Below the pieces are notes generated by a model. The model made no database searches and had not been told where the DNA came from. It worked only from the letters and a program-made list of their open reading frames with translations. Shown one piece after another: positions 2,103 to 62,494 of a DNA stretch of 64,000 nt. The stretch spans positions 51,987-115,986 of the forward strand of contig QHWT01000046.1 in assembly GCA_003222675.1 (NCBI GenBank), read 5' to 3'. Made by a program: the position numbers and the translations under genes. How positions within the stretch are numbered: the first letter of the stretch is position 1; each line of letters opens with the position of its first letter. This DNA is from Acidobacteriota bacterium. GTDB taxonomy: Bacteria; Acidobacteriota; Vicinamibacteria; Vicinamibacterales; 2-12-FULL-66-21.

Positions 2103-2232
2103 AGAACGGAGGACGGTTGTCGGAGGACGGTTGTCGGAAGGTTCTGGGAGTCAGTTGTTCGGAGGGACGTTCTCAGAGCCGTTTGTGGAGATCGAGTTCC
2201 GGTCTTCCTCAACCGTCCTCCGCCCTCCGATC
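2103..2232. repeat. inverted word-repeat hairpin in a convergent spacer (unit GGAGGACGGTTGTC), likely bidirectional terminator
   Basis: Left arm ACGGAGGACGGTTGTCGGAGGACGGTTGTCGG (2106-2137). Right arm CCTCAACCGTCCTCCGCCCTCC (2207-2228) contains the exact reverse complement of GGAGGACGGTTG. Lies between the SDR stop (2101) and the ADH stop (2236). Confidence 0.7.
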
Positions 2233-2235
2233 ACC

Positions 2236-3405
2236 TCAAGGCTTCATGACTACCTTGATGCACCCGTCTTCCTTGTCGCGAAAGGTTCGATACGCCGCCG
2301 GCGCCTGTGCCAGTGCTACGCGGTGCGTGATGACGAACGACGGATCGATTTCGCCGCGGACGATGCGATCGAGGAGCATGGGAAGATAGCGATGCACGTG
2401 GGTCTGGCCCATCTTGAGCGTCAATCCTTTTCCGAACGCTGCGCCCATCGGTACCTTGTCGATGAACCCGCCATACACGCCAGGCACCGAGACCGTGCCG
2501 CCCTTGCGGCACGCGTGAATCGCCTGGCGGAGCGCTGAGGCGCGATCGGTCGCAAGGAACGTCGCGGCCTTCACGCGATGGTACCTGTCGTCAACGGTCG
2601 TGCCGTGCGCTTCCATGCCGACGGCGTCGATGCACGCATCCGGTCCGCGGCCGCCGGTGGCATCCTTCAACGCTTCGAATACGTTCAGGACCGAGAGGTC
2701 GATGACTTCCGCCTTCCCTTTGTCGGCGGCCAGCATCAGCCGTTCTGGCACACGGTCGATGGCGATCACCCGTCCCGCGCCGAGCATCCACGCGGAGCGG
2801 ATGGCGAACTGGCCCACGGGTCCGCAGCCCCACACCGCGACCGTGTCGCCCGGCGTGATGTTGCAGTTCTCCGCCGCCATATAGCCGGTCGGAAAGATGT
2901 CCGAGAGAAACAACACCTGCTCGTCGCTCAGCCCGTCGGGCACTTTCATCGGGCCGACGTCCGCAAACGGCACGCGCACGTACTCTGCCTGCCCTCCGGC
3001 ATAGCCACCCATCATGTGGGAGTACCCAAACAATCCCGAGCCCGAGTATCCGTACGCTTCGTCCAGCATCCACGCGTTCGGGTTCGAGTTGTCGCATGCC
3101 GACCACAACTCGCGCTCGCAGAAGAAGCACCGGCCGCACGCAATCGTGAACGGCACCACGACCCGGTCGCCAATTTTCAGTTTCGTGATTTCAGGTCCGA
3201 CGGCGACGATTTCCCCCATGAATTCGTGGCCGAGGATGTCGCCGCGTTTCAACGTGGGGATGAACCCGTCGAGCAGATGCAGGTCTGAGCCGCAGATCGC
3301 CGTCAGCGTGACCTTGACGATCGCGTCGCGCGGGTTGAGGATCTTCGGATCCGGCACCCGCGCAATGCGGACTTCATTCGTGCCATACCAGCAGAGGGCT
3401 TTCAT
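2236..3405 (-). CDS. zinc-dependent alcohol dehydrogenase family protein (formaldehyde-dehydrogenase-like)
   Basis: CGSDLH and GHEFMGEIV zinc-ligand motifs, structural-zinc Cys cluster CGRCFFC, and NAD motif GCGPVG. Confidence 0.85.
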
Positions 3406-3521
3406 CGGTCAACGCCAGCAGTAAGCAGTTCACCGTACGCGGTTCGCAGTCCGCGGTTCGCAGTCGTGTCTGCAGCAGCTGCCCCGCACGCCTCGATCCG
3501 CCGACCGCAAATCGCAAACTG

Positions 3522-4271
3522 TCAGCCTCTGGGCTGCCCCGATGTCGTCGCCACCTCGCCAGCTTCCACGAGCTGCTTGAAACGGCGCAGGTCTTCGCGA
3601 ATTTCGGTCGCCGCGTCGCGCCCGAAGAGTCTCGCGACGGCGGCGCCGACTTTGCCGCCGGGCGGACTGTATTGCAGGTGCACCGTGACGCGCGTGCCGC
3701 GTCCCGCGCCTGCCGCGTCGAAGTTCACCGAACCGGCGCTGACGACGTCGGAGCCTTCGAGCGAGCGCCATCCGATCAGCTGATTGGGGACTTCGTGGTG
3801 AATCTCGCCGTCCCACTCGACGGTGGTTCCAGCCGGCCCTTTCGCGCGCCAGTGCGAGATCGTATCCGTCACGCGCTCCACGGATTCGAGATGGTGCATG
3901 AACCGCGGCAGGTTTTCGAGATTCCTCCAGAAGCGATAGAGCATCTCGATCGGCTGATTGATCGTGACGCTCTCGAGCACGTTGACGCCGCGCGGTCCTC
4001 TCAGCGCGGCCCGCGTGTCGCTGCCCGTTCCCGCGGTATTGAAGCCGATCGCTTCGTACACGTCGCAATGCGCCGTGACGCCGCGGCGCAGCAGCAGGCC
4101 TCCGATTGCGGCATACAGCCAGCCGCTCGAGCGCAGCCGCGACAGGCCGTAGATCGCCAGGCCGGTGCCGGCCGCCATCGATGCCCACCGCTCGAACTCG
4201 CTCAGGTTGCGATCCGATCTCGCGAGGGCTTCGCGCGTGTCCTCCGGAAATACCATCTCCATCGTCACCAT
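3522..4271 (-). CDS. membrane-anchored SRPBCC (cyclase/dehydrase-like) domain protein
   Basis: ORF 3522..4601 trimmed to ATG 4271 (MVTMEMVF...). Two hydrophobic helices are followed by an SRPBCC-like domain (INQPIEMLYRFWRNLENLPRFMHHLESV...HWRAKGPAGTTVEWDGEI). The upstream 110 codons are R/G-rich and overlap the next gene. Confidence 0.65.
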   Translation of the reverse strand: MVTMEMVFPEDTREALARSDRNLSEFERWASMAAGTGLAIYGLSRLRSSGWLYAAIGGLLLRRGVTAHCDVYEAIGFNTAGTGSDTRAALRGPRGVNVLESVTINQPIEMLYRFWRNLENLPRFMHHLESVERVTDTISHWRAKGPAGTTVEWDGEIHHEVPNQLIGWRSLEGSDVVSAGSVNFDAAGAGRGTRVTVHLQYSPPGGKVGAAVARLFGRDAATEIREDLRRFKQLVEAGEVATTSGQPRG

Positions 4272-4276
4272 CGCCG

Positions 4277-4651
4277 TTACTTTCTCCCTGTTGCGGTCGT
4301 CGCCGTCCAGGATGGTGGATCGCTTGCGGGGAACGACTCCGCCACGATGTCGTCGACGAGGTTCGGCGCGCGCCAGCCGCGCCTGCGCATGACTCGTTCG
4401 ACCCAGTCGCGCACGACCGTGTAATCGTGGCGTCCCGTCGCCGCGCGCACGGCGACGGTTCCACCGATCATCGCGAGCAGGCCGCCCATGAATCCGCCCC
4501 GCCGCGCCCCGATCATCGTGAGCGCGCTGCCCCAGGCTGCCGTCATCCAGCGTTCCTGGTCGTACGTGTTGATCGTCGAGGAGAGGCTCTGGCGATCCCA
4601 CACACTGGGCTGACTGCGGGCAATCGTCAAGTTCTTCGGAGCTTCAGGCAC
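4277..4651 (-). CDS. small conserved membrane protein with C-terminal ESFPASDPP motif
   Basis: GTG at 4651 lies 6 nt downstream of GGAGGAGG. Gly-rich TM segment GGFMGGLLAMIGGTVAV. C-terminal DDIVAESFPASDPPSW motif, which I recognise from small hypothetical proteins. Confidence 0.55.
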   Translation of the reverse strand: MPEAPKNLTIARSQPSVWDRQSLSSTINTYDQERWMTAAWGSALTMIGARRGGFMGGLLAMIGGTVAVRAATGRHDYTVVRDWVERVMRRRGWRAPNLVDDIVAESFPASDPPSWTATTATGRK

Positions 4652-7562: not shown

Positions 7563-8337
7563 GCTGATGACTCAAGGATTGCGGCTCATGCTGGCTCATG
7601 GTACGAGCCGGCGTGAGCCAAGGCCCATGCCGTGAGTCGGCCTGAGCCATGAGCCGTGAGTCCTGAGCCCTTTCTGCCAGCGGTTGATTCAAGAACCTGA
7701 CGAGCGGCATCAGCGCCCGGAAGGTCGCGACGAGCGTCGGGTAAAACTCGCGGCTGTGCGCGAAGGGGGCCGGAAACTCGCGGCCCGCGATGAACTGGCG
7801 GTACTTCAGATAGGCGGCCGCGGGATGATCGGCGGCAAAGCCGCGTGGTGTGCGCGTGAGCCGATCCCCGCCGACCTGCCCCAGACATTTACGGAAGGCG
7901 GTGGCGCGCACGGTCCTGTCAATCTCCGGCCACGTATTGGCGATGTGCGTGCGCACGCGATGGAGATCCGGCGGCTCGGGGTGATACATGCCGCCGCCCA
8001 TCCAAACCCACCCTCCAGCGATCTCGAAATAGAGGCCGGCGCCTTCGTGCTTCGGGAGGCCGCGCCACGGAAAAATCGCCGCCGCGTGCGTCTTCAGCGG
8101 TTTCTTGTTCTCGCTGAACCGCGTGTCGCGATACACGCGGTAGAGCGAATAGCGTGGCGACGCCACGAGCTCCGGCGCAAAGCGGCGGAAGTCGGCCGCC
8201 AGCCGCTCGACTACCACCGTCATCGGCTCGCGCACGTGCCGGTCGTACTCGTCCCGCCGCGCCTTGAACCATTCGCGGTCGTTATGCCTCGTAAGTGAAC
8301 GAAGAAAAGACAGAGTCTTGGGAGTGAACGGGGACAT
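7489..8337 (-). CDS. DUF2461 (TIGR02453) family protein with a repeat-encoded C-terminal extension
   Basis: The N-terminal 220 aa match the family ([32 protein letters not shown]...FIAGREF...). The last ~62 codons (7492-7677) are translated from the GGCTCA word-repeat hairpin and then run antisense into ahcY. Confidence 0.75.
7581..7670. repeat. inverted word-repeat hairpin (GGCTCATG / CATGAGCC words)
   Basis: Left arm GCGGCTCATGCTGGCTCATGG. Right arm CCTGAGCCATGAGCCGTGAGTCCTGAGCCC. GGCTCATGG and CCATGAGCC are exact reverse complements. Confidence 0.7.
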
Positions 8338-8344
8338 GGCTTAA

Positions 8345-8402
8345 GGCTCAGGGCTCATCGGTCAAACTGGCCTAGGCCCAAGCCGGCATGAGCCATGAGT
8401 CA
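8345..8402. repeat. inverted word-repeat hairpin, same GGCTCA family
   Basis: GGCTCAGGGCTCATCGG ... CCGGCATGAGCCATGAGTC. Sits just upstream of the DUF2461 start, so that gene is bracketed by the same word family on both sides. Confidence 0.65.
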
Positions 8403-8682
8403 CCAGCCGTCAGCCGATCTTATCAGGCCCGATCTTCTCGCCCTTCGTGCGATGCACTTCGTGAGCGTCATCGGGCGGTTCAAGCCGTCTGCAACGTTCG
8501 AGCAGGCACGTAGCGATCTCGACAGCGTCGCCGTCGCCGCTCAGAAGAAATATCCCGAGACCAACGAGCAGCGGGGAACGACGATGGTGCCGCTGCAAGA
8601 GGCGATGGTGGGCGGCGTGCGCAAGCCGATGTACTTCCCCGGCGCAGCCGTCGGCCTGCTGACGGCGATCCGCGTCGAGTGA
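8395..8682 (+). pseudogene. relic of an ADOP/MacB-type (FtsX-family) permease, periplasmic-domain to TM2 fragment
   Basis: The 95-aa ORF reads ...HFVSVIGRFKPSATFEQARSDLDSVAVAAQKKYPETNEQRGTTMVPLQEAMVGGVRKPMYFPGAAVGLLTAIRVE*. This matches the (h)viGRLkpGvt.eqA...l..ia..l...yPetN...v.pl.e.lvg.vr...l.l.gAV stretch of MacB-like permeases. Both the N-terminal part and everything after TM2 are missing. Confidence 0.75.
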
Positions 8683-10749: not shown

Positions 10750-10751
10750 AA

Positions 10752-10924
10752 GCTGGGAGCTGGGAGCTGGGAGCTGGGAGCTGGGAGCTGGGAGCTGGGA
10801 GCTGGGAGCTGGGAGCTGGGAGCTGGGAGCTGGGAGCTGAGCTGGGAGCTGGGAGCTGGGAGCTGGGAGCTGGGAGCTGGGAGCTGGGAGCTGGGAGCTG
10901 GGAGCTGGAAGCTGGAAGCTGGAA
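10752..10924. repeat. perfect heptanucleotide microsatellite (GCTGGGA)12 - GCTGA - (GCTGGGA)9 - (GCTGGAA)3
   Basis: Counted directly. Starts 3 nt after the stop codon at 10749. Confidence 0.95.
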
Positions 10925-10934
10925 GCTAAGAAAA

Positions 10935-10962
10935 CGGCTGGCCCCCCGAAGTGAGCCAGCCG
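10935..10962. terminator. bidirectional intrinsic-terminator-like hairpin
   Basis: CGGCTGGC-12 nt loop-GCCAGCCG (8-bp stem). On the minus strand it is followed by TTTTCTT, downstream of the TonB-dependent receptor. Confidence 0.65.
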
Positions 10963-10965
10963 GCC

Positions 10966-11006
10966 TTCTGTCTTCTGTCTTCTGTCTACTGCCTACTGTC
11001 TACTGC
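10966..11006. repeat. heptanucleotide tandem repeat (TTCTGTC)3(TACTGYC)3
   Basis: Counted directly. Abuts the stop of the minus-strand receptor gene (11009). Confidence 0.9.
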
Positions 11007-11008: not shown

Positions 11009-13966
11009 TTAGAACGAGAACCTGAATCCGATCTGGCCGACGCGCTGCTCGGGCTGCTGGAAGTCGCCCGCGAAGTTCGTCGGCTTCAGGAAGTCAGGAT
11101 TCGCGTCCCCTGTGCGCAACAGGCGCGTGGTGATGAACCCGGCCGGGTTCCTGGCGTTCAGCAGGTTGAAGAACTCGCCGATCGCTTCGATCCGGGTGGT
11201 GCCAAACAGCGGGAAGCTGCGCGAGACGCGCAGGTTCATCTGCGTCCGCCACGCCCCGCGCCCGCAGTTCCACGTCTTGCAATCGCCGATTTCCTTGACC
11301 CTGGCGCTGCCGTCCGCGTTGAGGCCATCGAATGCATATGCCTTCGCGGGGCTGTCGTTCCGCTCGCTGTTCTGATTCGTGTCCAGCCCCTCGATGATCG
11401 ACACGGGCAGCGGCGAACGGAACAGGAAGATCGGCGACACGGTGAAGCCCTTCATCTGGAAGATGCCCGCGAGCGTCCCCTGGTGCCGCGCGTCGGTACG
11501 CGAGGTCGGACCCATCACGCGCGGATCGTCGTAGAGCAGGGTCGCATCCTGCAGGTTGTTCGAGTTGAGCTCGTCGGACGCCGTGCCGATATCGCTCCTC
11601 GCCTTGGCCAGTGTGTAGGTCGCGGTGAAGTCGATCCCGCGACTCATACGGCGCTTCACGCCAAAGATGCCAGCGGTGTATTCGCTCTCTCCCTGGCTGA
11701 TCGCCGGCCGTGTGCTCAGCGCGTTCGGTGTCAGGCCGGTGAACGCAAGGACGCGGGGCGCGGACGGCTGTCCGACCGGACGTACGTTGAGGCGCGGACG
11801 CGAGTTCAAGTTGCGGCCGTCCGCACGCACGAAGTCGACGCCGAAGACTGTGCTCGCGTTCAGCTGATGCGACCAGCCGAGCGCAGTCTGACGCGTGTAG
11901 GGCAGCTGCAGCCGCGGATCGACCCACTGACCGAACAGCGGGATCGAGCTCGTGTCCGCCTGGTTCTGCGAAATGATGTTCGAGATTGGCTGGCCGATCT
12001 GGTAGAAGCTGCCGTCCGGATTCCGGATGCCGCTCTGATTGTCGACGTTCAGCACCGTCCCGAAGCCTTTGCCCGTCGCGTCGCTCGCCGCGAACAGACC
12101 GTTCGAGTTGGTGTACGCCATATCCATGTAGATGCCCCAGCCGGCGCGGACGACGTCCATGCCGTTGCCTCGCACGTCCCACGCGACGCCAAGTCGGGGC
12201 TGCCAGTTGTTCCCGTCCTCCTTGGGATCCTTACCGAAGTTCTCCAACCCTTTGATGCCGGCGAACAGCCCCGCCTTGCCTGCGTTCTGGAATCGGATGA
12301 AATTCGGGTTCTTCGACTGATCGAACTGATAGCCGGTGATGTAGTCGTAGCGGAGCCCCAGATTCACCGTGACGCGCGCCGACGCACGCCAGTCGTCCTG
12401 GATGTAGCCGGCGTACTGCCTCAGCGGAATATTCGCCGATGCGTCGCCATCGTTCAGCGTGACGTTCGACAGGGGCCCGCTCAGGCTGTTATCGAGGTGC
12501 GTGTACTGCAGCACGCCCTTGCCCGAGTTGAACGTGATGAACAGGCGCGGCTCGTTGATGAAGTTGAATCCGGTCTTCAAGTCGTGCCCGAGGCCGCCCA
12601 TTCCCGACATGTGCCAGGAGAAATCGTCTCGGAACTGGAACTTGTGCTGCTCGGTCGTCTGCGGCGTGTTGACGCTCTGGCCGACGAACACGTTGTTGTT
12701 CGGGAACGCCTGGTAAGGATCCGTGCTGGCAGCCCCGATGTGGTTACGGAAGTCGGCGTATTGAAAGATGAACTCGTTCAGCTTCGCGCCACCGAGGACC
12801 CAGTTGTGGTTCAGGTTGACCGAGTTGAACGTGTTCACGCTGTCGCCCCACCCGTTCGGCGCGGTGTGCGAATTTGCGCCGTACGGCTGGCTGTTCGTGT
12901 TGCGGCCGTACCGAACCGAGAGGTACTGCTGCGCGTTCATCTGCGACGTGAGCTTCGTGGTCAGCAGGTTCTCCCGGTACGGCGTGTTGTAGACGCCATC
13001 CAGATTGGGGAATAGCCCCTGCGTGCTGACCGCCTGCTTCGTGTCCTGCTGTGTCCGCTCCGCGGCGATGAAGTAGTGAGCCTTGTCCTTGATGACCGGG
13101 CCGCCGAAGCTGCCGCCGAACTGGTTCCGGCGGTAATCCTGCTTGTCGATGCCGCTCGTCTTTTCAACGTAGGTCGCGGCATTCATCGACTTGTCGCGGA
13201 ACAGCTCGAAGAAGCTGCCGTGCAGATCGTTCGTGCCGCTCTTGGTGACGATGTTCATGACGCCGCCGTTGCTGCGGCCGTTCTCCGCCTTGGAGCGCGA
13301 GGTGACGAAGTTGAACTCCTGGATCGCTTCGAGGGGGAAGAGCTGCAGCAAACCGCCGACCGTGTCGTCGTTGTTGTCGCCGCCATCGATCTGGTAGTTG
13401 ATGTTGCGGCCGTTGCCGCCGTTGATTTGCGGTGAGTACTGCGTGCTCTTCGTCGGGTCGCTGTGGAACCCGAGGCCGACGCCCGGGATCGTGACCGCGA
13501 GGTTTGCGAACTGCCGTCCGTTCAGCGGCAGGTTCTCGATGCGCTTGACGTCGACGACCCCGCCGACCGAGGAGCTGCTCGTCTGGATCAGCGGTGACTC
13601 CGCCGTGACGCTGACGTTCTCCGACAGACCGGCCAGCTTGAGATCGACGTTCACGTCAATCGTCTGGCCTACGTTGACGACGAGCCCTTTGCGATCGTAA
13701 GGGGCGAAGCCGGTAATGTCGGCATGCAGGTCGTAGGTGCCGATGGTTAGCGAGTTGAGACGGTAAACGCCTTCCGCGTCAGTCACCTCGGACCGGGTGA
13801 ACCCCGTTTCGGCGTTCTTCGCCGTGACCGTGACACCCGGCACCGCGGCCTTCTGCGCGTCGACGATCCGCCCCTGGATGTTGCCGGTGGTCTGTTGCGC
13901 CGTCGCAGACGCTGTCGCGAGCGTGAACGCGCAGAGCGCGATCATCGCAACGATAATCTTCTTCAT
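11009..13966 (-). CDS. TonB-dependent receptor with CarboxypepD_reg-like N-terminal domain
   Basis: Signal peptide, then [44 protein letters not shown] (carboxypeptidase-regulatory-like fold). Plug-like region. Long beta-barrel ending in the aromatic terminus ...IGFRFSF. Confidence 0.9.
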
Positions 13967-16124: not shown

Positions 16125-16186
16125 TGTTCAATGCTGAATGCCCAACAGACCTCCTTGAACATTGAGCACTGGACATTGAGCATTGA

Positions 16187-16339: not shown

Positions 16340-16349
16340 AACGCCTCAA

Positions 16350-16457
16350 TTTGGTGATTCCGTGATCTGGTGATTTGGTGAATTGCATCGCACCAGCGCG
16401 GGCGGTAGCCCGCGCAAGGCTGAATCACTAAATCACTGAATCACCAAATCACCAAAT
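16350..16457. repeat. inverted word-repeat hairpin (GGTGATT / AATCACY words) enclosing a GC stem-loop
   Basis: Left arm TTTGGTGATTCCGTGATCTGGTGATTTGGTGAATT. Inner stem GCGCGGG-CGGTAG-CCCGCGC. Right arm GAATCACTAAATCACTGAATCACCAAATCACCAAATCC. Confidence 0.75.
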
Positions 16458-16461
16458 CCGC

Positions 16462-16760
16462 TCAGTCTGCGCGAAGCGCGACCATCGGATCGACGCCGAA
16501 GCGACGGATCCACAGCTCATAGCTGATCACCGCAACAGAAGTCCGCCGGTCCGGTCGTCGTTATCGTTGAGGAGTCTGCCTCTGACGAGGGCCCTGCCGA
16601 GCGTGCGCAACTAACTGCCGCTCACGGGGGCGCCGTAAATGCGCTCCGCCTCGCGTCCGTCACCAAGGCTGATGGGCTGAGGCTCGACTGGGTAGGCATA
16701 CATGTCGGACAACGTAGGAGCAGGGTTCCGGACATTACGAATCGCTTCGTATGTGACGGA
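16462..16760 (-). pseudogene. relic of an ADOP/MacB-type permease, N-terminal periplasmic-domain fragment with in-frame stop and frameshift
   Basis: Minus-strand reading gives ...SVTYEAIRNVRNPAPTLSDMYAYPVEPQPISLGDGREAERIYGAPVSGS*LRTLGRALVRGRLLNDNDDR. After a frameshift it continues VAVISYELWIRRFGVDPMVALRAD*. This matches the order ...ERV.G..VS..fF..LGv.p.lGR.f...Dd....vaViS..lWqrrFggdp.vvGr of that family. Confidence 0.7.
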
Positions 16761-16792
16761 TTGCGGCGCCGCATCGTTCCGCCGCGCCTCCG

Positions 16793-16970
16793 GACGCGGG
16801 GCGCGGGGCGCGGGGCGCGGGATCCCGCGTTCTTCATTTTTCAACCCGTACCCCACATTCCGCACCCCGCACCCCGCACCCCGCACCCCGCACCCCGCAT
16901 CCCGCACCCCGCCCCGCATCCCGCACCCCGCACCCCCCCGGACCTCTGTACCCCGCACCCCGCGCCCCGC
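16793..16970. repeat. G/C-rich heptad arrays in inverted orientation: (GCGGGGC)~4, loop, (CCGCAYC)~12
   Basis: Left arm GACGCGGGGCGCGGGGCGCGGGGCGCGGGA. Right arm CCGCACCCCGCACCCCGCACCCCGCACCCCGCATCCCGCACC... The arms are complementary apart from one transition per heptad. Confidence 0.85.
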
Positions 16971-17000
16971 AGCCCGACTTGGGCATGCGTGTTGCCACTC

Positions 17001-17642
17001 TCAGCACCGGAGGTATCGCAATGCCAAGAGGCGACAAGTCGTCATACACGGACAAGCAAAAACGTCAAGCGGAACACATCGAGGAGGGCTACGAGGATCG
17101 AGGCGTGACGGAAGGTGAAGCGGAGCGGCGCGCGTGGGCGACGGTGAACAAGGAGACCGGCGGAGGGAAGAAGAGCGGGTCAGGGCGCGGCAAGCGCGTG
17201 AACAAGGCGCCGTCGCGCAAAGGCGGACGCAAGGGTGGCCGCGCGGCCGCAGCCTCACGGCGCACGGCCGCCCGGAAATCGGCGTCGCCCTCCTCCTCGA
17301 CGCGGCGGTCGTCGGCGCGCAAGCGCGGTTCGAGCGGCTTACGGAAGAAGCGCTGATCGCGCCTTTTCGATGTGCGGATTTGCGCACGATCCGGGCGAGC
17401 GCCGGGTCGCCCGCGAATCGTTCATCGAGCCATCGTTGTTGTCCGGCGTCCATGATGAAGATGATGTCCGCCCACTCGAGCATCCGGGCGTTCACGTTGA
17501 CCAGCGCGTCTGGACTCGTGCCGGCCGAGCGTACGTCGAGCCCAGGATCCTTGCAGAAAACACGTTCGGCGGTCGCGCTGCGGCTTCGGTTGTACTGACA
17601 CACGAAGAGCACCCGCACGGGCCGCGTCTCCGGGGAACTCAT
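17001..17642 (-). CDS. low-molecular-weight phosphotyrosine phosphatase-like protein, 3' part probably degenerate
   Basis: N-terminus VRVLFVCQYNRSRSATAE carries the CX5R(S/T) P-loop, followed by VRSAGTS and WADIIFIMD. After about residue 86 (about position 17384) similarity stops. The open frame then runs as low-complexity sequence across the whole convergent gene 17021..17356. Confidence 0.55.
   Translation of the reverse strand: MSSPETRPVRVLFVCQYNRSRSATAERVFCKDPGLDVRSAGTSPDALVNVNARMLEWADIIFIMDAGQQRWLDERFAGDPALARIVRKSAHRKGAISASSVSRSNRACAPTTAASRRRATPISGRPCAVRLRPRGHPCVRLCATAPCSRACRALTRSSSLRRSPCSPSPTRAAPLHLPSRLDPRSPPRCVPLDVFACPCMTTCRLLALRYLRC
17021..17356 (+). CDS. small conserved protein (MPRGDKSSYTDKQKRQAEHIEEGYE... 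family) with basic Lys/Arg/Ser-rich tail
   Basis: ATG 17021 lies 6 nt downstream of GGAGGT. The N-terminal 45 aa resemble a widespread small hypothetical protein family. C-terminal tail: GKKSGSGRGKRVNKAPSRKGGRKGGRAAAASRRTAARK... Confidence 0.7.
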   Translation: MPRGDKSSYTDKQKRQAEHIEEGYEDRGVTEGEAERRAWATVNKETGGGKKSGSGRGKRVNKAPSRKGGRKGGRAAAASRRTAARKSASPSSSTRRSSARKRGSSGLRKKR

Positions 17643-19366: not shown

Positions 19367-19443
<77 letters not shown>

Positions 19444-26770: not shown

Positions 26771-26815
26771 GGCTCACGGCTCAGGGCTCATGCTGGCTCA
26801 GGGTTCATGGGCTCG
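26771..26815. repeat. direct heptad array of the GGCTCAN family
   Basis: GGCTCAC GGCTCAG GGCTCAT GCT GGCTCAG GGTTCAT GGGCTCG, starting immediately after the DinB stop. Confidence 0.85.
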
Positions 26816-31661: not shown

Positions 31662-31678
31662 TGTGCGGCGACTGCGGA

Positions 31679-31738
31679 GGCTGACGAAGGCTGACGAAGG
31701 CTGACGAAGGCTGACGAAGGCTGACGAAGGCTGACGAA
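31679..31738. repeat. perfect decamer tandem repeat (GGCTGACGAA)6
   Basis: Counted directly. Starts 18 nt upstream of the rdgB start codon on the transcribed (minus) strand. Confidence 0.95.
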
Positions 31739-32072
31739 GGAAACGGATTCTCCAAACGGAGCAACGGAGATAACGAAGACGAACGGAGGGTGCCCCTGCA
31801 ATACGGCCGCAGAGACAGGCAGACGACGCGTCCGCCACGGCCGGCCTAAGCAACGTGTGCCGGCCCCACGGAGGTCACGCGAGATCCGGATACGAGCAAC
31901 CCCGAATACCACGTTGTTCGTATCCGGACTCTCGCGTGACCTCCTGCCGCGCGAAGCGCGGCGCGGCGGACGCGTCGTCTCAGTGTCTCCGCGCCTGGCG
32001 CGTCTCAGCGTGACGCGGTGTTCTTCGTTTAACTCCGTTTTCTCCGTTGCTTCGTTTTTGAGATCCGTTTCC
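31739..32072. other. 334-bp nested inverted-repeat element (MITE-like or structured RNA) between rph and rdgB
   Basis: Terminal imperfect ~50-bp inverted repeats (GGAAACGGATTCTCCAAACGGAGCAACGGAGA... / ...TCTCCGTTGCTTCGTTTTTGAGATCCGTTTCC). Inner pair CAGACGACGCGTCCGCC (31820-31836) / GGCGGACGCGTCGTCT (31965-31980). Central 26-bp pair GGAGGTCACGCGAGATCCGGATACGA (31870-31895) / TCGTATCCGGACTCTCGCGTGACCTCC (31918-31944). Three additional local hairpins. Confidence 0.8.
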
Positions 32073-37895: not shown

Positions 37896-38247
37896 GGGGG
37901 CGAACCAGATTCGACGGGAGTACGGTTCCGTAGGATGCGTGCCGAGGACCATCAACCTCGTTAAAAGATGGAAACAACCTAACTGCGGATACGCAGCTCG
38001 CTCTCGCAGCGTAAAAACCTGTGAGCGTCCGTCCTCATCAGCCTGTGGGTGGGGAACGGATGTCATTTCAGCAGGCTGGCTGACCTCGGCCGTCCCGGAC
38101 GAGAGCAGTGAGATTTTCCGGGGTTGGTTTCCGGCGGCTCTGGCCGTTTCTTTACGCCGGGAGCGACACTTCAGAAGCGGATACGCATCGTAGATTCCTG
38201 CGGGGATGTATTTTCGGACCCGGGTGCAACTCCCGGCGCCTCCACCA
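37896..38247 (+). ncRNA. ssrA: tmRNA (SsrA)
   Basis: The 5' end GGGGGCGAACCAGATTCGACGGG pairs with the 3' end GCGCCTCC-A-CCA, including the G3-U pair. T-arm-like GGACCCGGGTGCAACTCCCGG. Tag reading frame 37970-38014 ends ...ADTQLALAA-TAA. Confidence 0.93.
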
Positions 38248-38348
38248 ACCTTCGCTCGCCGGGCTATCGCAGGCGCGCGGCGAGTCGAAGGCTCACCCAA
38301 CCCCTATTTGGCCTGCTGTCGTCCTGACTGCTTCCATTCGCACCGCAC

Positions 38349-38390
38349 CTCTCATCTCGGACCTCGGACCTCGGACCTCGCGCCTCGGCA
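38349..38390. repeat. heptad array (CTCGGAC)n, reverse complement of the GAGGTCC family
   Basis: CTCGGAC x3 perfect (38356-38376) with degenerate flanking units. Lies downstream of ssrA. Confidence 0.85.
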
Positions 38391-38432
38391 GTTTTGTCAA
38401 ACTACTGTCACAGTTAAGTTTGCAGTCTTGAC

Positions 38433-42369: not shown

Positions 42370-42440
42370 AGGCTCAAGACTGAGGGCTCATGACTGATGC
42401 TGGCTTAAGGCTGGGCCCTGGGCCGCCCTGAGCCCTGCGT
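42370..42440. repeat. GGCTCA/TGAGCC word-rich convergent spacer
   Basis: CAGGCTCAAGACTGAGGGCTCATGACTGATGCTGGCTTAAGGCTGGGCCCTGGGCCGCCCTGAGCCCTG. Confidence 0.6.
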
Positions 42441-46844: not shown

Positions 46845-46849
46845 GATGC

Positions 46850-46945
46850 GAGGTCCGAGGTCCGAGGTCCGAGGTCCGCGAAGCGGCGAACGCGGGCCAA
46901 CCGACAACCGCTAACCGACAACCGTTAACCGTTAACCGTTAACCG
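46850..46945. repeat. two adjacent heptad arrays: (GAGGTCC)4 and (AACCGNN)7
   Basis: GAGGTCC x4 at 46850-46877. Then AACCGAC AACCGCT AACCGAC AACCGTT AACCGTT AACCGTT AACCGTC at about 46899-46947. Confidence 0.9.
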
Positions 46946-47200
46946 TCAGTACCGGTAGACCCGCACCCGCGATCCCGTGTCTCCGGATGAAAACGTGGCG
47001 ATTGCATCCGCTCCAGCGGCGATCGAGGTTGGCCGCGGAAACGACGTGACGCGGACGGCATCCCGCGTTGCGACACGGAACGCGGCGGGGTTGAATCGAG
47101 CCAGCCAGTCAACCATCCCGCGGACCGGCTGCCCGACGCTATTCAGCGCGTCCAGCGCAGAGGCGCAGCAAAACGGCACACGAATTACACTTCCGCTAGA

Positions 47201-50028: not shown

Positions 50029-50116
50029 GAGTCGTTCTCGCCCCGGGTAGTGTTCTGGAACGGTTTCGCAGGAGCCTGCTGGGAGAGGCTTGTCGAGGAT
50101 AGCACAAGACGGGACG

Positions 50117-50232
50117 ACGGAGGACGGTTGTCGGAGGACGGACCGAGGTCCGAGGTCCGAGATCCGACGTCCGAGATCCGACGTCCGAGACCGACGCGCG
50201 CACTTGAAGCCTGAAGCCTGAAGCCTGAAGCC
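50117..50232. repeat. three word families in tandem in a divergent promoter region
   Basis: ACGGAGGACGGTTGTCGGAGGACGG at 50117-50141. (GAGGTCC/GAGATCC/GACGTCC)7 at 50145-50193. (TGAAGCC)4 at 50205-50232. Confidence 0.9.
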
Positions 50233-50285
50233 CGACGGATCCATGCGGTATACTGCGCGGGCAGCATGAGTGCGGAGGAACGGTC

Positions 50286-50975: not shown

Positions 50976-51208
50976 CGCTCGTCCCGGCAGGCTCCTGCGA
51001 CCCGGCCTCCCCGCGGTACCACCACTCAGCACCCGACACCTCACATCTCATCCCGGCACCACGCTTGCTGTATACACCCTGTATATCGGGCTGGCCGTGT
51101 CGAAGCGCTGGTACATCATCAACATACGCTCGACCATGACGGCTGGAATCCATGAAATGGAATGACGGGTTCCAAAAGATCGAATCGTTCGTCGGGAGGA
51201 GTTTTCAT

Positions 51209-54151
51209 ATGAAGCGCGTCTTGATTGGGATGCTGCTGGCGGGCTTCGTAGCCGCGAGCGCGTCCGCCCAGCAGGGCACCACCGAGCTGCGTGGCCGGGT
51301 TCAGGATCCGCAGGGAGCGGTCCTGCCAGGTGTCACTGTGGTCGTTCGCAACCAGGCGACCGGAATGTTTCGCGAAACGGTCAGTGGTTCGGACGGCACG
51401 TTCATCGCCAGCGCGCTCGTTCCGGGCACGTACGAAGTGACCGCCGAGCTGCCGGGATTCAAGAAGTTCAACCGCAAAGATCTCTTGCTCGAAGTCGGGA
51501 AGACCGCCTCGATCGACGTGAAGCTGGAGGTCGGATCGCACGAGGAGACGGTGAACGTCACTGCGGAATCACCGCTCGTCGACGTCACGTCGAAGGAGAT
51601 CGGCGGCAACATCACGAATGAAACGCTGGTGCAGCTCCCCAGCGTCAACGGCAACTTCATTGGATTCGTCGGCCTGCTGCCCGGCATCGTCCCGTCGATC
51701 AGCACGGAGTCGTTCGGCAGCGATTCGATCAGCGTCAACGGTCAGGACCCGCGCAACAACAATTACACCGTCGACGGCGGCAACAACAATGACGACGTGA
51801 TCGGGCAGCGCGCCGGCATGCAGGCGCGGACGCCGATCGAGGCGATCCAGGAATTCCAGGTCATCACGAACCAGTTCGACGCGGAGTTCGGCCGGACATC
51901 GGGCGCCGTGATCAATGCCGTCACCAAGCAGGGGACCAACGCCGTGCGCGGCAGCGCGTTCGGCTTCTTCCAGGACGGCAGCCTGACGGAGAAGGACTTC
52001 TTCGCGAAGCAGCAGAACCTGCCGAAGGCAGATACCAGCTACCAGCGCTGGGGCGGCACGGTCGGGGGCCCGCTCGTGCGCGACAAGATGCACTACTTCT
52101 TCAGCCTCGAGCGCTTCTCAATCGATCGTCCGAATACGATCGTGATTCCGGCGCGCCCCGATCTGAACGACCAGCAGACGACCAGGGATCGCGTATGGAA
52201 CACGATCATCCGCGGCGATCACCAGATCAATCGGAACAACACATACAGCATCCGATGGCTGCGAGAATCGTCGCCGCAGACGAACCAGATCATCGGCGCG
52301 GTCACGGCGCGGGCCGCACGTGAGGAGTCGGACGTCGACCAGACGCTGGCGACGAACGTGAACTCGGTCCTGTCGAATACCAGGGTCAACACGCTGCGCC
52401 TGACGTGGACGCGCGAGAACGTCGCCTTCGCGAACCACTGCTTCAACACGAACGGGCGTGACCTGTCGAAGTGCGAGCCGACGCTCGCGTTCCAGGACTT
52501 CACCGATCAACAGGACAACACGGCGCAGGCGCGCATCAACGACGCGATTCAGCTGGATGAAACGCTGGCGTGGTTCGTGCCGAACAGGCACGGCGACCAC
52601 GACATCAAGTTCGGCGCGCAGTACGAGTACTCGGGCGCCGCGAACCAGAACCAGGGCAACTTGAACGGCACCTTCACGTTCGGCCGCAGCGACGCGGTGT
52701 TCAACTCGGCGGATCCCCGGACGTATCCGGATCGCTTTACCGCCCGCGTCGGCGGGCCGAGCATCTTTTACGAGAAGGCGCACTATGTCTCGACGTTCGT
52801 GCAGGACAAGTGGCGCTTCACGCCGCGGCTCACGCTGAGCCTCGGCATGCGTTACGACCTCGAGCTCATCCCGCTCGCCGAGACCGACGATCCGCTGGTG
52901 GACGGCTATCCGGTCGACAAGAACAATTTCCAGCCGCGCATCGGTGTCACCTATGACCTGGGTGGCGGCAAGAGCATCGTCCGCGGCGGGTACGGACGGT
53001 TCTACGACAAGACCCATTTCGAGTTGATTGGCGGGCTCTACACCGGAACGCCCTTCACCTCGTCGTTCACGGTGAATTTCCCGACAGCGGCGGCTGATTC
53101 CGGCCCGCGCAACGGCGCGTTCCCGACGGATCCGTTCCTCGTGAACGGCCCGGTGATTAATCGCACCGTGCTGGAGCAGCAGTTCCCGGCCGGACGGCTC
53201 CTTCGCAACACCGGCGCGAGCTGGGACGACCCGAATCGCACCGTGCCGTACACCGATCAGGTGACGGCCGGCTACGAGCGGCAGCTCGCGGGCAACATGG
53301 CGGTCAGCGCCGACTACGTGCGCGCGTTCAGCCGCGACCTGCTCATGTCGCGGGATCTGAACCCGGGCCTGCGCGCAACCACGGCGGTCACCTCGCCGCT
53401 GGTGCGCCAGGGCAGCGCCGTGCTGAGCAGCGCGCTCGCGGTGCTGCAGGCGAATCATCCAGGGTTTGCACCGTTCACCACTGGGGTGACGCAGCCGCTG
53501 AATGTCGGCAAGGTCGACTACGACGCGCTGATGCTCAGTCTCAGCAAGCGCTTCAGCCACAACTATTCGGCGCAGGTATCGTACACGCTGGCGTACTCGC
53601 GCGGGAACACGTCGGCCAGTTTTATCCCGGCCAGCGGTTTCCAGCTGCTCGACGACATGCACCTCGAGCTGAACGAAGGACCGACCAACTTCGACACGCG
53701 GCATAACCTGGTCGTCAGCGGACGCGCGCTCGTGCCGCACACCGGCGGCTTGAATCTGAGCTGGGTCGCGCGCGCGTTGAGCGGATCGCCGTTCAGCCTG
53801 ACGAATGCGAACATCGATCCGGATCGCAACGGCACGCAGGCCGAGCCGTTGGCCGACGCGAGCTACGCGGGCAACGGACAAAACGCGTTCACGGTGAAGG
53901 ACTACAAGGCGCAGCGCAATGGCGCGTACGGGCCCGGGTTCTTCGAGCTGGACGCGCGGGTTGGCTACAGCGTGCGCGTGATGAACCAGCGTCGCGTGGA
54001 GCTGTTCGCCGACATCTTCAACGTCACCAATCGCGCCAACTTCCTCAATCCATCCGGCAACCAGGCATCGACGCAGTTCCTGCTGCTCACCGCGTACAGC
54101 ACGAGCTACACGCCACGGAAGCTGCAGGTCGGCGCAAGGATCGAGTTCTGA
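51209..54151 (+). CDS. TonB-dependent receptor with CarboxypepD_reg-like N-terminal domain
   Basis: ATG 51209 lies 7 nt downstream of GGGAGGAG. Signal peptide, TTELRGRVQDPQGAVLPGVTVVVRNQATGMFRETVSGSDGTF, plug, and a barrel ending ...QVGARIEF. Paralog of 11009..13966. Confidence 0.9.
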   Translation: MKRVLIGMLLAGFVAASASAQQGTTELRGRVQDPQGAVLPGVTVVVRNQATGMFRETVSGSDGTFIASALVPGTYEVTAELPGFKKFNRKDLLLEVGKTASIDVKLEVGSHEETVNVTAESPLVDVTSKEIGGNITNETLVQLPSVNGNFIGFVGLLPGIVPSISTESFGSDSISVNGQDPRNNNYTVDGGNNNDDVIGQRAGMQARTPIEAIQEFQVITNQFDAEFGRTSGAVINAVTKQGTNAVRGSAFGFFQDGSLTEKDFFAKQQNLPKADTSYQRWGGTVGGPLVRDKMHYFFSLERFSIDRPNTIVIPARPDLNDQQTTRDRVWNTIIRGDHQINRNNTYSIRWLRESSPQTNQIIGAVTARAAREESDVDQTLATNVNSVLSNTRVNTLRLTWTRENVAFANHCFNTNGRDLSKCEPTLAFQDFTDQQDNTAQARINDAIQLDETLAWFVPNRHGDHDIKFGAQYEYSGAANQNQGNLNGTFTFGRSDAVFNSADPRTYPDRFTARVGGPSIFYEKAHYVSTFVQDKWRFTPRLTLSLGMRYDLELIPLAETDDPLVDGYPVDKNNFQPRIGVTYDLGGGKSIVRGGYGRFYDKTHFELIGGLYTGTPFTSSFTVNFPTAAADSGPRNGAFPTDPFLVNGPVINRTVLEQQFPAGRLLRNTGASWDDPNRTVPYTDQVTAGYERQLAGNMAVSADYVRAFSRDLLMSRDLNPGLRATTAVTSPLVRQGSAVLSSALAVLQANHPGFAPFTTGVTQPLNVGKVDYDALMLSLSKRFSHNYSAQVSYTLAYSRGNTSASFIPASGFQLLDDMHLELNEGPTNFDTRHNLVVSGRALVPHTGGLNLSWVARALSGSPFSLTNANIDPDRNGTQAEPLADASYAGNGQNAFTVKDYKAQRNGAYGPGFFELDARVGYSVRVMNQRRVELFADIFNVTNRANFLNPSGNQASTQFLLLTAYSTSYTPRKLQVGARIEF

Positions 54152-54201
54152 ATAGCGAAGGAACGAAGGAATCGAAGGCTTATTTCGCGTCGGGAGGGGA
54201 A

Positions 54202-54236
54202 GGGGCGCTCGGGTTTCTGCCGGGCGCCCTTTTTTA
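54202..54236 (+). terminator. Rho-independent terminator
   Basis: GGGCGCTCGG-GTTTCTG-CCGGGCGCCC followed by TTTTTT, 50 nt after the receptor stop. Confidence 0.8.
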
Positions 54237-54238
54237 CC

Positions 54239-54316
54239 GGCTTCAGGCTTGAGACTTCAGGCTTCCGGGCTCGGGCTGCACGTCAGACATCCTTCTGCTT
54301 TCTGTCTCCTGTATCC
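54239..54316. repeat. heptad words GGCTTCA family and TTCTGYC family upstream of the ABC operon
   Basis: GGCTTCA GGCTTGA GACTTCA GGCTTCC GGGCTCG GGCTGCA at 54239-54280. CCTTCTGCTTTCTGTCTCCTGTATCC at 54291-54316. Confidence 0.75.
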
Positions 54317-54325
54317 TTTTCATCA

Positions 54326-56107: not shown

Positions 56108-56116
56108 CACACGGTG

Positions 56117-56200
56117 ACCAGTTACCAGTTACCAGTTCCACTGGCAACCGGGAAACGGCTACCGGCAACTGGCAACTGGCAACTGGCGACCGGCTACTGA
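56117..56200. repeat. intercistronic inverted heptad arrays (ACCAGTT)3 ... (GGCAACT)3
   Basis: Left arm ACCAGTTACCAGTTACCAGTTCC. Right arm GGCAACTGGCAACTGGCAACTGGC. The arms are complementary apart from one A/G transition per heptad. Lies between the two ABC genes. Confidence 0.85.
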
Positions 56201-56207
56201 CAGGTTC

Positions 56208-58031: not shown

Positions 58032-58049
58032 ATGCCGGACGTGAATCAG

Positions 58050-60207: not shown

Positions 60208-61782
<1,575 letters not shown>

Positions 61783-61861
61783 CGCGGTATCCTTTATCAC
61801 GACGGCCCCGGCCGCCGCCGTGCGCGACAGGTCGAGCCGGCTGACGATTGAAGGAGAGAAA

Positions 61862-62040
61862 AAGGCCCCGCTTTGCCGTGTGGGGAGCTCGTTTGAACCT
61901 GCGCTAAGCAGGTGGAACCACTGGTCAAGCCGCGCGTCAGGCTTCCTCTTGCAGAGGCATGCACACGGCGCGGCGTCGCGATTCACTTAGATGGAACATT
62001 GGCTCAAAGCGAGCCTCCGAAACCATCACGCGCAAAGCAG
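61862..62040 (-). ncRNA. ssrS: candidate 6S RNA (long irregular hairpin downstream of zapA)
   Basis: Minus-strand RNA CUGCUUUGCGCGUG...CACACGGCAAAGCGG forms a ~13-bp closing stem. Successive helices follow: GGAGGCUCG/CGAGCUCC, UUUGAGCC/GGUUCAAA, CUAAG/CUUAG, GCCGCGC/GCGCGGC. There is a large asymmetric internal loop and an apical CCUC-UGCAA-GAGG hairpin. The 3' end is followed by CCUUUUUC. Folded by eye only. Confidence 0.45.
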
Positions 62041-62074
62041 GGAACTCGAAAGATCGTCTACTCTACTACGGATC

Positions 62075-62410
62075 TTAGAATGATCCGGCGGTCCGGGCAA
62101 GGGGAGAGTCGGATTTGTCGTCGGGCGCGAGCGCCAGGTCCAGCATGCGCTCGAGTTCCCTGGCGCGGTGAATCACGCTGGCGCGGCAGGCGGCGTCCTC
62201 GTCGCGCGCCCGGAAGCACTCGTCGGCGATGTTGAGCGCGGCGAGCACGGCGACCTTCAGCGAGTCGCCCTGAGGACACTCGCGCTGCGCGAGCGCCATC
62301 TTCTGCTCCACATAGGCCGCGAGCTCGGCGACGTAGGCCGCGTCGAGATGGCTGCGGATCGGATACCGCTGCCCGTTGATGTTCACCGTGACGACACGGC
62401 TCTGTTCCAT
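62075..62410 (-). CDS. zapA: cell division protein ZapA
   Basis: VTVNINGQRYPIRSHLDAAYVAELAAYVEQKM...LKVAVLAALNIADE. Confidence 0.85.
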   Translation of the reverse strand: MEQSRVVTVNINGQRYPIRSHLDAAYVAELAAYVEQKMALAQRECPQGDSLKVAVLAALNIADECFRARDEDAACRASVIHRARELERMLDLALAPDDKSDSPLARTAGSF

Positions 62411-62423
62411 AGAGATCCTTGTC

Positions 62424-62494
62424 GGCTCCAGGCTCCAGGCTCCAGGTTCCAGGCTTCAGGATTTTCTGGAGCCTGAAGCCTGAAGTCCGAAGCC
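62424..62494. repeat. intercistronic inverted heptad arrays (GGCTCCA)3 GGTTCCA GGCTTCA ... TGGAGCC (TGAAGCC)2-3
   Basis: GGCTCCAG and CTGGAGCC are exact complements. Outer units differ by C/T transitions, which become G-U pairs in the minus-strand (sense) transcript. Confidence 0.85.

Follow-up and report, generated by a model that had tools for sequence, protein, structure and literature searches.

The stretch of DNA analysed here, referred to as the window, is 64,000 nt long and comes from the genome of an Acidobacteriota bacterium (assembly GCA_003222675.1, contig QHWT01000046.1, positions 51,987 to 115,986). Many of its spacers are built largely from tandem copies of a short word, usually 7 nt long, and these arrays are the subject of this work. 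Loci that contain homologues of RNase Y (gene 60208-61782 of the window) place the host in the Vicinamibacterales, consistent with the acidobacterial origin proposed in a preliminary description of the sequence, and the top species representatives at these RNase Y-centred loci are 81-91% identical. Gene calls were transferred from near-identical public contigs, after which start and stop codons were checked; on the resulting map, 6343 of the 64000 nt (9.9%) are non-coding. Arrays were located with Tandem Repeats Finder (TRF) and by direct reading of the sequence, and both agree on an array at every coordinate given in the preliminary description. Together with its flanks, the window makes up the approximately 82 kb of this genome that were inspected. 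Labels such as L008 and L093 denote the loci and contigs compared with it (relatives, near-identical strains and flanks of the same genome). The arrays in the window are as follows.

2107-2138: 14-mer CGGAGGACGGTTGT x2.3, in a convergent spacer 5 nt past the SDR gene stop (TRF)
7581-7670: GGCTCAT x2 facing TGAGCCN x5-6, inverted pair in the convergent AdoHcyase/DUF2461 region (TRF and reading)
8345-8436: GGCTCAG/GGCTCAT facing TGAGCCA/TGAGTCA, plus the 14-15-mer TCAGCCGATCTTA x1.9, in a divergent spacer that is 81% array (TRF and reading)
10751-10927: AGCTGGG, about 25 copies as assembled (a number that is either unreliable or polymorphic), the last three units being AGCTGGA, 1 nt past the sulfatase stop (TRF)
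10963-11006: CTTCTGT/CTACTGY x6, 2 nt from the stop of the gene at 11009-13966 (minus strand) (TRF)
16155-16186: degenerate TTGAACA/TTGAGCA x4.6 (TRF)
16349-16460: 8-mer arms (TGGTGATT)n and (AAATCACY)n around a GC-rich core hairpin, GCGCGGGC-GGTA-GCCCGCGC (TRF and reading)
16795-16821: CGCGGGG x3.9, left arm (TRF)
16845-16976: CCCGCAC x18.6 with higher-order variants, right arm (TRF)
26771-26815: GGCTCAN x5-6, directly past the DinB_2 stop and into the next start codon (26807) (TRF)
31678-31740: 10-mer AGGCTGACGA x6.3, lying 17 nt upstream of the start of an rdgB-like gene (minus strand) (TRF)
38347-38388: GGACCTC family x4.7, 100 nt downstream of the tmRNA (TRF)
40105-40170, plus strand: CCAGTTG/CCGGTTG x9, forming 21-nt (7-residue) in-frame repeats in the SLT-TPR gene (TRF, period 21 x3.1)
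42370-42440: degenerate GGCTCAA/GACTGAG facing CTGAGCC, filling 80% of a convergent spacer (TRF)
46849-46878: CGAGGTC x4.3, perfect, 4 nt past a stop codon (TRF)
46898-46948: AACCGAC/AACCGTT x7 (TRF)
50112-50142: GGAGGAC(GGTTGTC) units in a divergent promoter spacer (TRF)
50143-50196: CCGAGGT/CCGAGATCCGACGT (7 and 14 nt) x7 (TRF)
50205-50232: TGAAGCC x4, perfect (TRF)
54156-54178: CGAAGGAA x2.7, CGAAGG type, between a stop codon and a terminator (TRF)
54239-54275: GGCTTCA family x4-5 (TRF)
54291-54316: CTTCTGC/TTTCTGT x3, just upstream of an ABC gene (reading)
56117-56199: ACCAGTT x3 facing ACTGGCA/ACCGGCA x8.6, a hairpin filling the spacer of two co-directional ABC genes
62424-62495: GGCTCCA x3-5 facing TGGAGCC/TGAAGCC x4, a hairpin filling the zapB-like/zapA spacer

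In the period scan, positions i and i+p counted +1 if they matched and -3 if they did not, and 20 dinucleotide-preserving shuffles of the window served as the control. At period 7 it returned 13 strong tandem segments (509 nt), as compared to none in the 20 shuffles. Periods that are not multiples gave zero to two segments (one at 6, one at 10 and two at 19), those at 14, 20 and 21 being counted as multiples. When strict segments were placed on the gene map, 18 arrays had period 7 and any other period accounted for 0-5; 17 of these 18 are intergenic, and TRF scores rise to 319. With degenerate arrays included there are 24, covering about 1.4 kb or roughly 22% of the window's non-coding DNA. 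The predominance of 7-bp units and their enrichment between genes, both stated in the preliminary description, are thus borne out. Its estimate of roughly 18 array-bearing spacers compares with a count of 15 of 43 spacers, to which are added one array within the SLT gene and another where AdoHcyase and DUF2461 overlap. About half of the array-bearing spacers consist mostly of array.

In about ten cases the array starts 0-18 nt after a stop codon, and arrays extend to within 8-16 nt of start codons. They thus fill whatever room is available. They occupy 48% of the bases of convergent spacers, 21% of divergent ones and 15% of co-directional ones, their sites being the intervals from stop to terminator and from terminator to promoter, convergent spacers, and protein linkers or tails. 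The earlier statement that arrays run into coding sequence was confirmed for the SLT gene, where the array is in frame and encodes LQLPVAG-type 7-residue repeats after the signal peptide, and for the DUF2461 open reading frame (ORF), in which the Pfam domain ends at residue 215 of 282 and 67 further codons cross the GGCTCA array and enter the neighbouring gene. Two ORFs, 16611-16958 (minus strand) and 16702-17118 (plus strand), of 115-138 amino acids and with no Pfam match, are largely translated CCCGCAC/CGCGGGG array; the gene call that a public assembly makes for one of them is probably spurious. Several words contain cores resembling the Shine-Dalgarno sequence (GAGGT, GGAGGA and AAGGA), and a Shine-Dalgarno role for these cores was rejected, their orientation and distance to start codons being inconsistent.

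The same words recur in unlinked spacers, as had been noted before: there are 10 pairs of identical-class words between different spacers where 0.5 would be expected, and all of 2000 simulations stayed below 10. Positions 2106-2130 and 50117-50141 are identical over 25 of 25 nt, positions 38356-38381 match the reverse complement of 46848-46873 over 26 of 26, and the irregular unit GGCTCATGCTGGCTCA is common to the array at 26771-26815 and to 7583-7598. A larger mobile element was considered and rejected. In a blastn self-comparison of the window, dispersed similarity is limited to the units, with no common flanks, ends or length, and matches resembling target-site duplications are no commoner at arrays than at control positions. 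Among the called genes of the window and its flanks (about 82 kb), no transposase and no REP-associated tyrosine transposase (RAYT) family was recorded, REP standing for repetitive extragenic palindrome. The arrays are accordingly neither CRISPR, whose repeats of 23-50 nt alternate with unique spacers of like length, since here units of 7-14 nt stand head to tail with no spacers, nor insertion sequences, nor miniature inverted-repeat transposable elements, whose terminal inverted repeats, fixed length and target-site duplications are missing from them; on these points the preliminary description was correct. The fixed 20-40-nt palindrome consensus of REP and REPIN elements is likewise not seen, array lengths and loops being different from one locus to another.

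An inverted partner was scored where the word's reverse complement stood in two tandem copies no more than 160 nt away, with at most 2 mismatches in 14. Such a partner is present in 48 of 116 arrays (41%) of the window and relatives, as compared to 4 of 116 (3%) in a control in which the word was reversed but not complemented. In the window, the paired arms described earlier were confirmed at 7.6, 16.4, 16.8, 56.1 and 62.4 kb, with RNA-fold z-scores of -4 to -10, and four of these (7.6, 16.4, 56.1 and 62.4 kb), when folded with DNA parameters, gave z -3.4 to -8. The RNA hairpin at 7581-7670 folds at -54.6 kcal (z -5.3), that at 16349-16460 at -58 and -61 kcal on the two strands (z about -8; as DNA, -34.9 kcal and z -8.0), and that at 62.4 kb has z -7.4 on the minus strand. 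The pair at 8.3 kb can be made out by eye, but its fold does not surpass that of shuffles (z -1.4). Direct-only arrays make up over half of the total, and their folding too is at the level of shuffles, examples being 38340-38395, 46845-46950 and 54236-54320.

Differences between the two arms are transitions in 13 cases and transversions in 2, in agreement with the preliminary description. At 16.8 kb, where the arms are one C/T transition per unit apart, and at 56.1 kb, the transition is repeated unit by unit, which is the pattern that separate homogenisation of each arm would be expected to leave. When the mirror order of variant units in the two arms, which would be a sign of inverted duplication, was examined in an ungapped comparison of low power, 3 of 32 hairpins reached a nominal p < 0.05 and two more were borderline; one clear example is L093, where a 22-bp perfect stem runs through heterogeneous units (z -7.1).

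The preliminary description had further pointed out the resulting asymmetry, G-U pairs on one strand and A-C mismatches on the other, which would hint at a functional RNA strand. Such a hint was not supported. Fold energies of both strands were compared for 20 array hairpins flanked by co-directional genes: the sense strand gave the more stable fold in 10 of them, the antisense strand in the other 10, and the difference averaged -0.3 kcal/mol, although for related loci this test rests on crude gene calls. A real terminator (54196-54236) used as the positive control is sense-biased, at -31.4 kcal on the plus strand vs -18.9 kcal on the minus strand, and the asymmetry was therefore rejected as a mark of a functional RNA strand. 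Orthologous hairpins of close relatives flip the sign of the strand preference (+9.6 in L134 and -24.1 in L143). The arms at 16.8 kb fold at -113 kcal on the minus strand vs -74 on the plus strand, and at 56.1 kb the untranscribed strand forms the more stable hairpin by about 15-16 kcal (-42.6 kcal on the plus strand, -58.0 on the minus strand). As a separate observation, the hairpin between the two ABC genes, ABC1 and ABC2 (56112-56203 in the window, and in L093, L008 and L089), gains 10-16 kcal on the antisense strand over the sense strand in each of the four lineages, with differing words, four cases being too small a number to support an interpretation.

Two canonical terminators lie next to arrays in the window.

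10935-10962, minus strand: canonical terminator for an outer-membrane protein gene, a GC hairpin CGGCTGGC..GCCAGCCG followed by TTTTCTT
54196-54236, plus strand: canonical intrinsic terminator GGGGCGCTCGG...CCGGGCGCCCC followed by T6; not an array

The first has arrays on both flanks, and around the second the order at 54152-54325 is stop codon, array, terminator, array, start codon; arrays also stand beside canonical terminators in L089, L090, L092 and L093, and L093 has a pyrimidine-rich stretch similar to 54291-54316. The array hairpins at 56.1 and 62.4 kb lie inside operons and have no T-run, and T-runs follow array hairpins in L111 and L089. A simple terminator scan gave no excess over shuffles (13 vs 12.7 and 14 vs 11.0), and canonical terminators are thus not a strong general signal in this DNA. 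An explanation by G-quadruplexes was rejected as it fits only two to three of the words: runs of three G occur only in AGCTGGG, whose array at 10751-10927 has quadruplex potential, and in CGCGGGG/CCCGCAC, and there are none in GGCTCAN, GAGGTCC, TGAAGCC or CCAGTTG.

The window is 99.8-100% identical to contigs of several independent samples and assemblers (ENA, JGI and Logan). Copy numbers are identical across those assemblies for the arrays at 26.8, 40.1, 42.4, 46.9, 50.1, 54.2, 56.1 and 62.4 kb, and a relative contig of 423 kb (L008) carries arrays of a like kind. The identity of arrays in independent assemblies refutes an assembly artefact, save for the exact copy number at 10751-10927 and perhaps at 16845-16976. 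At the former, an ENA scaffold has a 100-N gap, a JGI contig (L176) ends inside the array and L175 has 10.6 copies. In the middle of the same array, where another scaffold has the 100-N gap, there is a lone 5-nt unit, AGCTG, at 10835-10840, which is probably a gap-closure seam. At the latter, ENA scaffold_32 ends at 16982, 6 nt beyond the CCCGCAC array. Beyond this point, at the right edge of the 16.1-17.0 kb spacer, over 16983-17386, three independent assemblies (L167-L169) run left from 17386 into different sequence, completing an ORF resembling a low-molecular-weight phosphatase, and the segment with the small basic ORF 17021-17356 is joined in this way only in the window; this join is either a strain rearrangement or a chimeric join.

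In the comparison of copy numbers between strains, which had been proposed as a check, the 10-mer array varies, AGCTGGG differs between assemblies, and the other arrays are invariant. The 10-mer array (31678-31740) has 3 fewer units in L167, which otherwise differs by 3 single-nucleotide polymorphisms (SNPs) and one 15-nt indel in 14.6 kb. Short arrays of 3-9 units have no indel among strains 99.8-100% identical. The array at 42370-42440 holds 2 of the 9 SNPs of L005 and 2 of the 6 SNPs of L006.

At orthologous sites of other species, the arrays are far less constant. The ABC1-ABC2 spacer is 0-31 nt long in L010, L012, L024, L046 and L090, and it is a hairpin of 100-136 nt in the window, L093, L008 and L089, built from three different words (CCAGTTR in the window, a degenerate version of the CCAGTTR family in L093, GGCTCAA in L008 and a GGCTTCA-like word in L089). 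The zapB-zapA hairpin (62424-62495) is absent in L007, whose RNase Y is 91% identical, and in L089 and L012, the spacer there being 41-42 nt. In the divergent spacer of hyp276 and the GntR gene, 121 nt of arrays (50112-50232) are inserted between conserved promoter/operator blocks, and these blocks are kept in L087, L144, L090, L092, L093 and L094, all without arrays. A possible case of persistence is that, in the window and in L092, L154 and L158, the stop codon of the outer-membrane protein gene (51152-54151) is directly followed by a CGAAGG-type array. The arrays are therefore stable among strains, and they are gained, lost and re-worded between species.

Heptamer arrays are a clade-wide trait of moderate-GC Vicinamibacteria and not a peculiarity of the window. 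Relatives within the Vicinamibacteria with a guanine-plus-cytosine (GC) fraction below 0.69 have 24 period-7 arrays in 196 kb (12.2 per 100 kb), Vicinamibacterales at GC >= 0.69 have 1 in 96 kb, and other lineages have none in 910 kb. As the last figure includes 177 kb at GC >= 0.60, high GC alone is insufficient. In 800 kb of soil-metagenome loci, chosen for a homologue of the outer-membrane protein gene (51152-54151), there are 63 period-7 arrays, with 14-15 arrays at each of periods 8 and 9 and 0-7 at the remaining periods. The density in relatives with GC below 0.69 is 8-12 arrays per 100 kb. Across relatives the words are very diverse, amounting to dozens of unrelated words without a shared motif. 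At the loci compared, the GGCTCA family is confined to the window, L008 and L046, and the GAGGTCC family occupies six or more loci in the approximately 82 kb of the window's own genome. Three arrays of this family were noticed just outside the window in the same genome (L174 8807-8882, L178 5981-6013 and L178 8735-8758): one of 11 units filling a convergent spacer, one in the rpmI-rplT spacer and one, of 24 nt, in frame inside pheT. The word system envisaged in the preliminary description is thus an overstatement, given the diversity of words across relatives and the gain and loss of arrays between species. It had also named beforehand three findings that would speak against it, namely a density at the level of shuffles, an assembly artefact and derivation from one known mobile family; none of the three was observed.

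We consider it somewhat better than even (roughly 55%) that the arrays are heptanucleotide-dominated long simple-sequence repeats (LSSRs), made by slippage and inverted copying in unconstrained DNA. According to this model, slipped-strand mispairing during replication would add and remove units, with an intrinsic preference for a 7-nt register, and would homogenise each arm separately, so that one transition could spread through an arm. Inverted copying at the DNA level, the simplest source of the frequent inverted arms, would build and repair the opposite arm, perhaps by template switching at a hairpin or by quasi-palindrome correction, and occasional ectopic copying would seed one word at unlinked loci. 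The arrays would be tolerated rather than individually selected and would accumulate where DNA is otherwise unconstrained; the hairpins probably have side effects on mRNA 3' ends, on intercistronic stability and on the structure of the DNA. A slippage origin is indicated by the period specificity, the variant units at array ends (AGCTGGA x3), the higher-order 14- and 21-nt units and the unit-number polymorphism.

Several points weigh against this model: slippage gives no reason for the 7-nt register; pure slippage leaves the shared words, the 25-nt identity and the irregular unit GGCTCATGCTGGCTCA at unlinked spacers unexplained, and some ectopic copying or a process like that of mobile elements has to be assumed for them; the presence of whole hairpins where relatives have spacers of 0-40 nt resembles insertion more than gradual growth; the post-stop CGAAGG arrays in relatives that are 55-75% identical in protein, together with the CCAGTT hairpin of L093, suggest some persistence or constraint; the short arrays are not hypermutable, as their constancy among strains attests; and the crude gene calls behind the strand test belong on the same side of the balance.

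The inverted arrays might instead be functional RNA structures, resembling REP elements and bacterial interspersed mosaic elements (BIMEs), whose stems are built from tandem words and which serve in mRNA protection, differential operon stability, or termination and insulation. The great stability of the hairpins (z -4 to -10), the ten or so arrays starting 0-18 nt past stops and the high occupancy of convergent spacers (48% of bases) would fit such a role, as would the array hairpin directly past the stop of the outer-membrane protein gene in L090, L099, L106, L111 and L154 (T-rich at its end in L111), the 22-bp perfect stem that L093 retains despite diverged units, and the report that Xanthomonas arrays are mostly transcribed (PMC4692102). 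We nevertheless regard this role as unlikely, as there is no sense-strand G-U bias (10 vs 10, and the ABC1-ABC2 hairpin is antisense-favoured in 4 of 4 lineages), over half are direct-only arrays that fold like shuffles, arrays coexist with canonical terminators, others are found in divergent promoter spacers or directly before starts inside operons with no T-run, and their presence varies among close relatives. Less probable still is that the word families are small non-autonomous mobile hairpins of the REPIN or PATE kind, copied by an enzyme encoded elsewhere and altered in length by slippage afterwards. Such elements would account for the sharing of words, irregular units included, by unlinked loci, the lineage-specific families (GGCTCA; GAGGTCC), the common inverted pairs and the complete hairpins where relatives' spacers are nearly empty. 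On the other hand, a mobile unit should have a conserved length, end or flank and leave target-site duplications in excess, none of which was found; the relatives have dozens of unrelated words, most arrays are direct-only, and the called genes of the 82 kb include no transposase or RAYT match. Of the same low order is our belief in a broader conjecture, that these period-7 "lattice hairpins" are lineage-specific, actively propagated elements, whole hairpins being installed by an enzyme with a 7-nt register or by hairpin-specific copying and then used by the cell at mRNA 3' ends and between cistrons.

The strict 7-nt period, whatever the word, could also reflect a protein that reads this register with weak specificity, such as an RNA-bound cold-shock/OB-fold protein or a DNA-bound nucleoid protein, for which the arrays would be multivalent platforms; CspB has been reported to bind with one protein per heptamer (PMC4679880). 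This is very unlikely: the words have no common motif and their many classes argue against a single specific binding protein, the position relative to genes is inconsistent, turnover is rapid and there is no candidate protein. That the arrays are contingency loci, in which changes in copy number switch or tune neighbouring genes as do the simple-sequence repeats of host-adapted pathogens, is harder again to believe. The 10-mer 17 nt before the rdgB-like start does vary by 3 units between samples, the AGCTGGG copy number differs between assemblies, and a one-unit change in the SLT heptamer array would shift the frame; but most arrays are at 3' ends or in convergent spacers, arrays of 3-9 units are invariant among near-identical strains, the SLT coding array is degenerate (78% matches) and the host is a free-living soil bacterium. 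Finally, we give next to no credence to assembly artefacts, for which the breaks and N-gaps at the two longest arrays and the odd 5-nt unit inside AGCTGGG might be adduced, since all other arrays are identical across independent samples and pipelines and contigs of relatives hundreds of kb long carry arrays.

The heptamer families of cyanobacteria, known as short tandemly repeated repetitive (STRR) sequences, were reportedly described by Mazel and colleagues in 1990. Microcystis heptamers and the cyanobacterial STRRs are a precedent for many words. Similar to the STRRs and to Nostoc GGGGAYT, the arrays of the window form several heptamer families that are tandem and dispersed over many intergenic loci; they differ in phylum, GC and the far greater number of words, and neither STRR1-3 nor a cyanobacterial host is found here. 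Inverted array pairs are reportedly rare in Nostoc but common here. The array (GGGACTG)n at L012 4414-4435 has what we take to be the same circular word as STRR1 (CCCCAGT), probably by coincidence. REP elements have units of 20-40 nt with a fixed consensus and a motif recognised by RAYT. The present arrays are like REP, BIME and REPIN in being intergenic hairpin repeats near stops or within operons, with families at unlinked loci, and unlike them in having no fixed element, a variable length, stems of tandem 7-mers and no RAYT in 82 kb.

The preliminary description had named STRRs as the closest analogue, but they are neither the sole nor the nearest one, given the heptamer LSSRs surveyed in 2007 and the GGGAATC arrays of Xanthomonas (PMC4692102, PMC4679880). 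In LSSR-rich genomes of several phyla, heptanucleotides are the commonest unit, and slippage with a polymerase-contact length has been proposed for it (Mrazek, Guo and Shah 2007, cited through PMC4679880 and PMC4692102). The window agrees with this class in having head-to-tail units of 5-11 nt longer than chance (13 segments vs 0), in the predominance of 7-nt units (18 vs 0-5 in the window and 63 vs at most 15 in relatives, about 82 kb of its own genome being considered) and in its mostly non-coding location (17 of 18). Within genes, arrays of this class come in multiples of three bases, as does the SLT array, which is 21-nt and in frame. Both are phylogenetically patchy, lineage-wide traits of free-living bacteria for which slippage has been proposed as the origin. 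Acidobacteria and Vicinamibacteria are not reported in those surveys as summarised in the two papers; here, moreover, arrays account for about 22% of the window's non-coding DNA, and about 40% of them stand in inverted pairs.

In Xanthomonas, a high-GC genome has about 185 intergenic arrays of 2-26 GGGAATC units, which lie a shorter distance from the upstream stop than from the following start and of which 70-75 pairs are inverted and able to form stem-loops; their length varies by species, their position is often kept, and both strands are transcribed, with no established function (Rehm et al. 2015, PMC4692102). The arrays described here are likewise intergenic, stop-proximal and frequently in inverted pairs. 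However, Xanthomonas has one dominant G-rich, quadruplex-forming word, whereas there are dozens of words here. The TAACTGA repeats of marine Beggiatoaceae are a single word in 2-6 copies, with 169 direct sets vs one indirect repeat, mostly directly upstream of start codons (MacGregor 2015, PMC4679880); they resemble the present arrays as short heptamer tandem sets that are abundant between genes and close to gene ends. No earlier description of such arrays in Acidobacteria was found in the searchable literature. Each feature thus has a precedent, and the novelty lies in the host lineage, in the array density, in the joint occurrence of many word families and a high share of hairpin pairs, and in the data on turnover at orthologous sites.

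These results add an abundant, mostly uncultured soil lineage to those with heptamer repeats, which have been known since 1990 (STRR) and, since 2007, as the commonest long simple repeat in bacteria, and provide an independent, word-rich data set that allows array-rich and array-poor genomes to be compared (Vicinamibacterales with GC >= 0.69 have almost none). If active propagation were true, the Vicinamibacteria would be a natural experiment with many words, and it could explain the dominance of heptamers in unrelated phyla. In practical terms, the arrays break short-read assemblies (N-gaps and contig ends at 10.8 and 16.9 kb) and can give false ORF extensions (the DUF2461 tail and ORF 16611-16958).

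Matches to Rfam (at gathering thresholds) and ARAGORN in the window are limited to the three RNAs below, and the arrays were on this ground rejected as members of known RNA families.

19367-19443, plus strand: tRNA-Pro(TGG)
37896-38247, plus strand: tmRNA (tag ADTQLALAA)
61861-62046, minus strand: 6S RNA, between the RNase Y and zapA genes

Three in-frame coding tandem repeats are unrelated to the heptamers: a 117-nt unit x3.1 within a GAF-domain protein (38872-39230), an 87-nt repeat in two overlapping TRF rows (x2.3 and x2.9) at 30085-30483 in the hypothetical gene 29905-31011 (minus strand), and a 42/84-nt repeat in the ZapB-like coiled-coil gene (62647-62812). Among the near-identical strains, L167 and L168 have 15 extra nt, in frame, at 30827, and a 17-nt deletion at 28979 in L170 splits a 486-residue ORF into two called genes. 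Lastly, a -10-like box (TATACT/TATCCT) lies 6-12 nt before the starts of orthologous genes in the window (54296-54325 and 50255-50275) and in L088, L089, L099, L108, L115 and L121, and its recurrence so close to the starts suggests leaderless mRNAs, or mRNAs with very short leaders, in this lineage.

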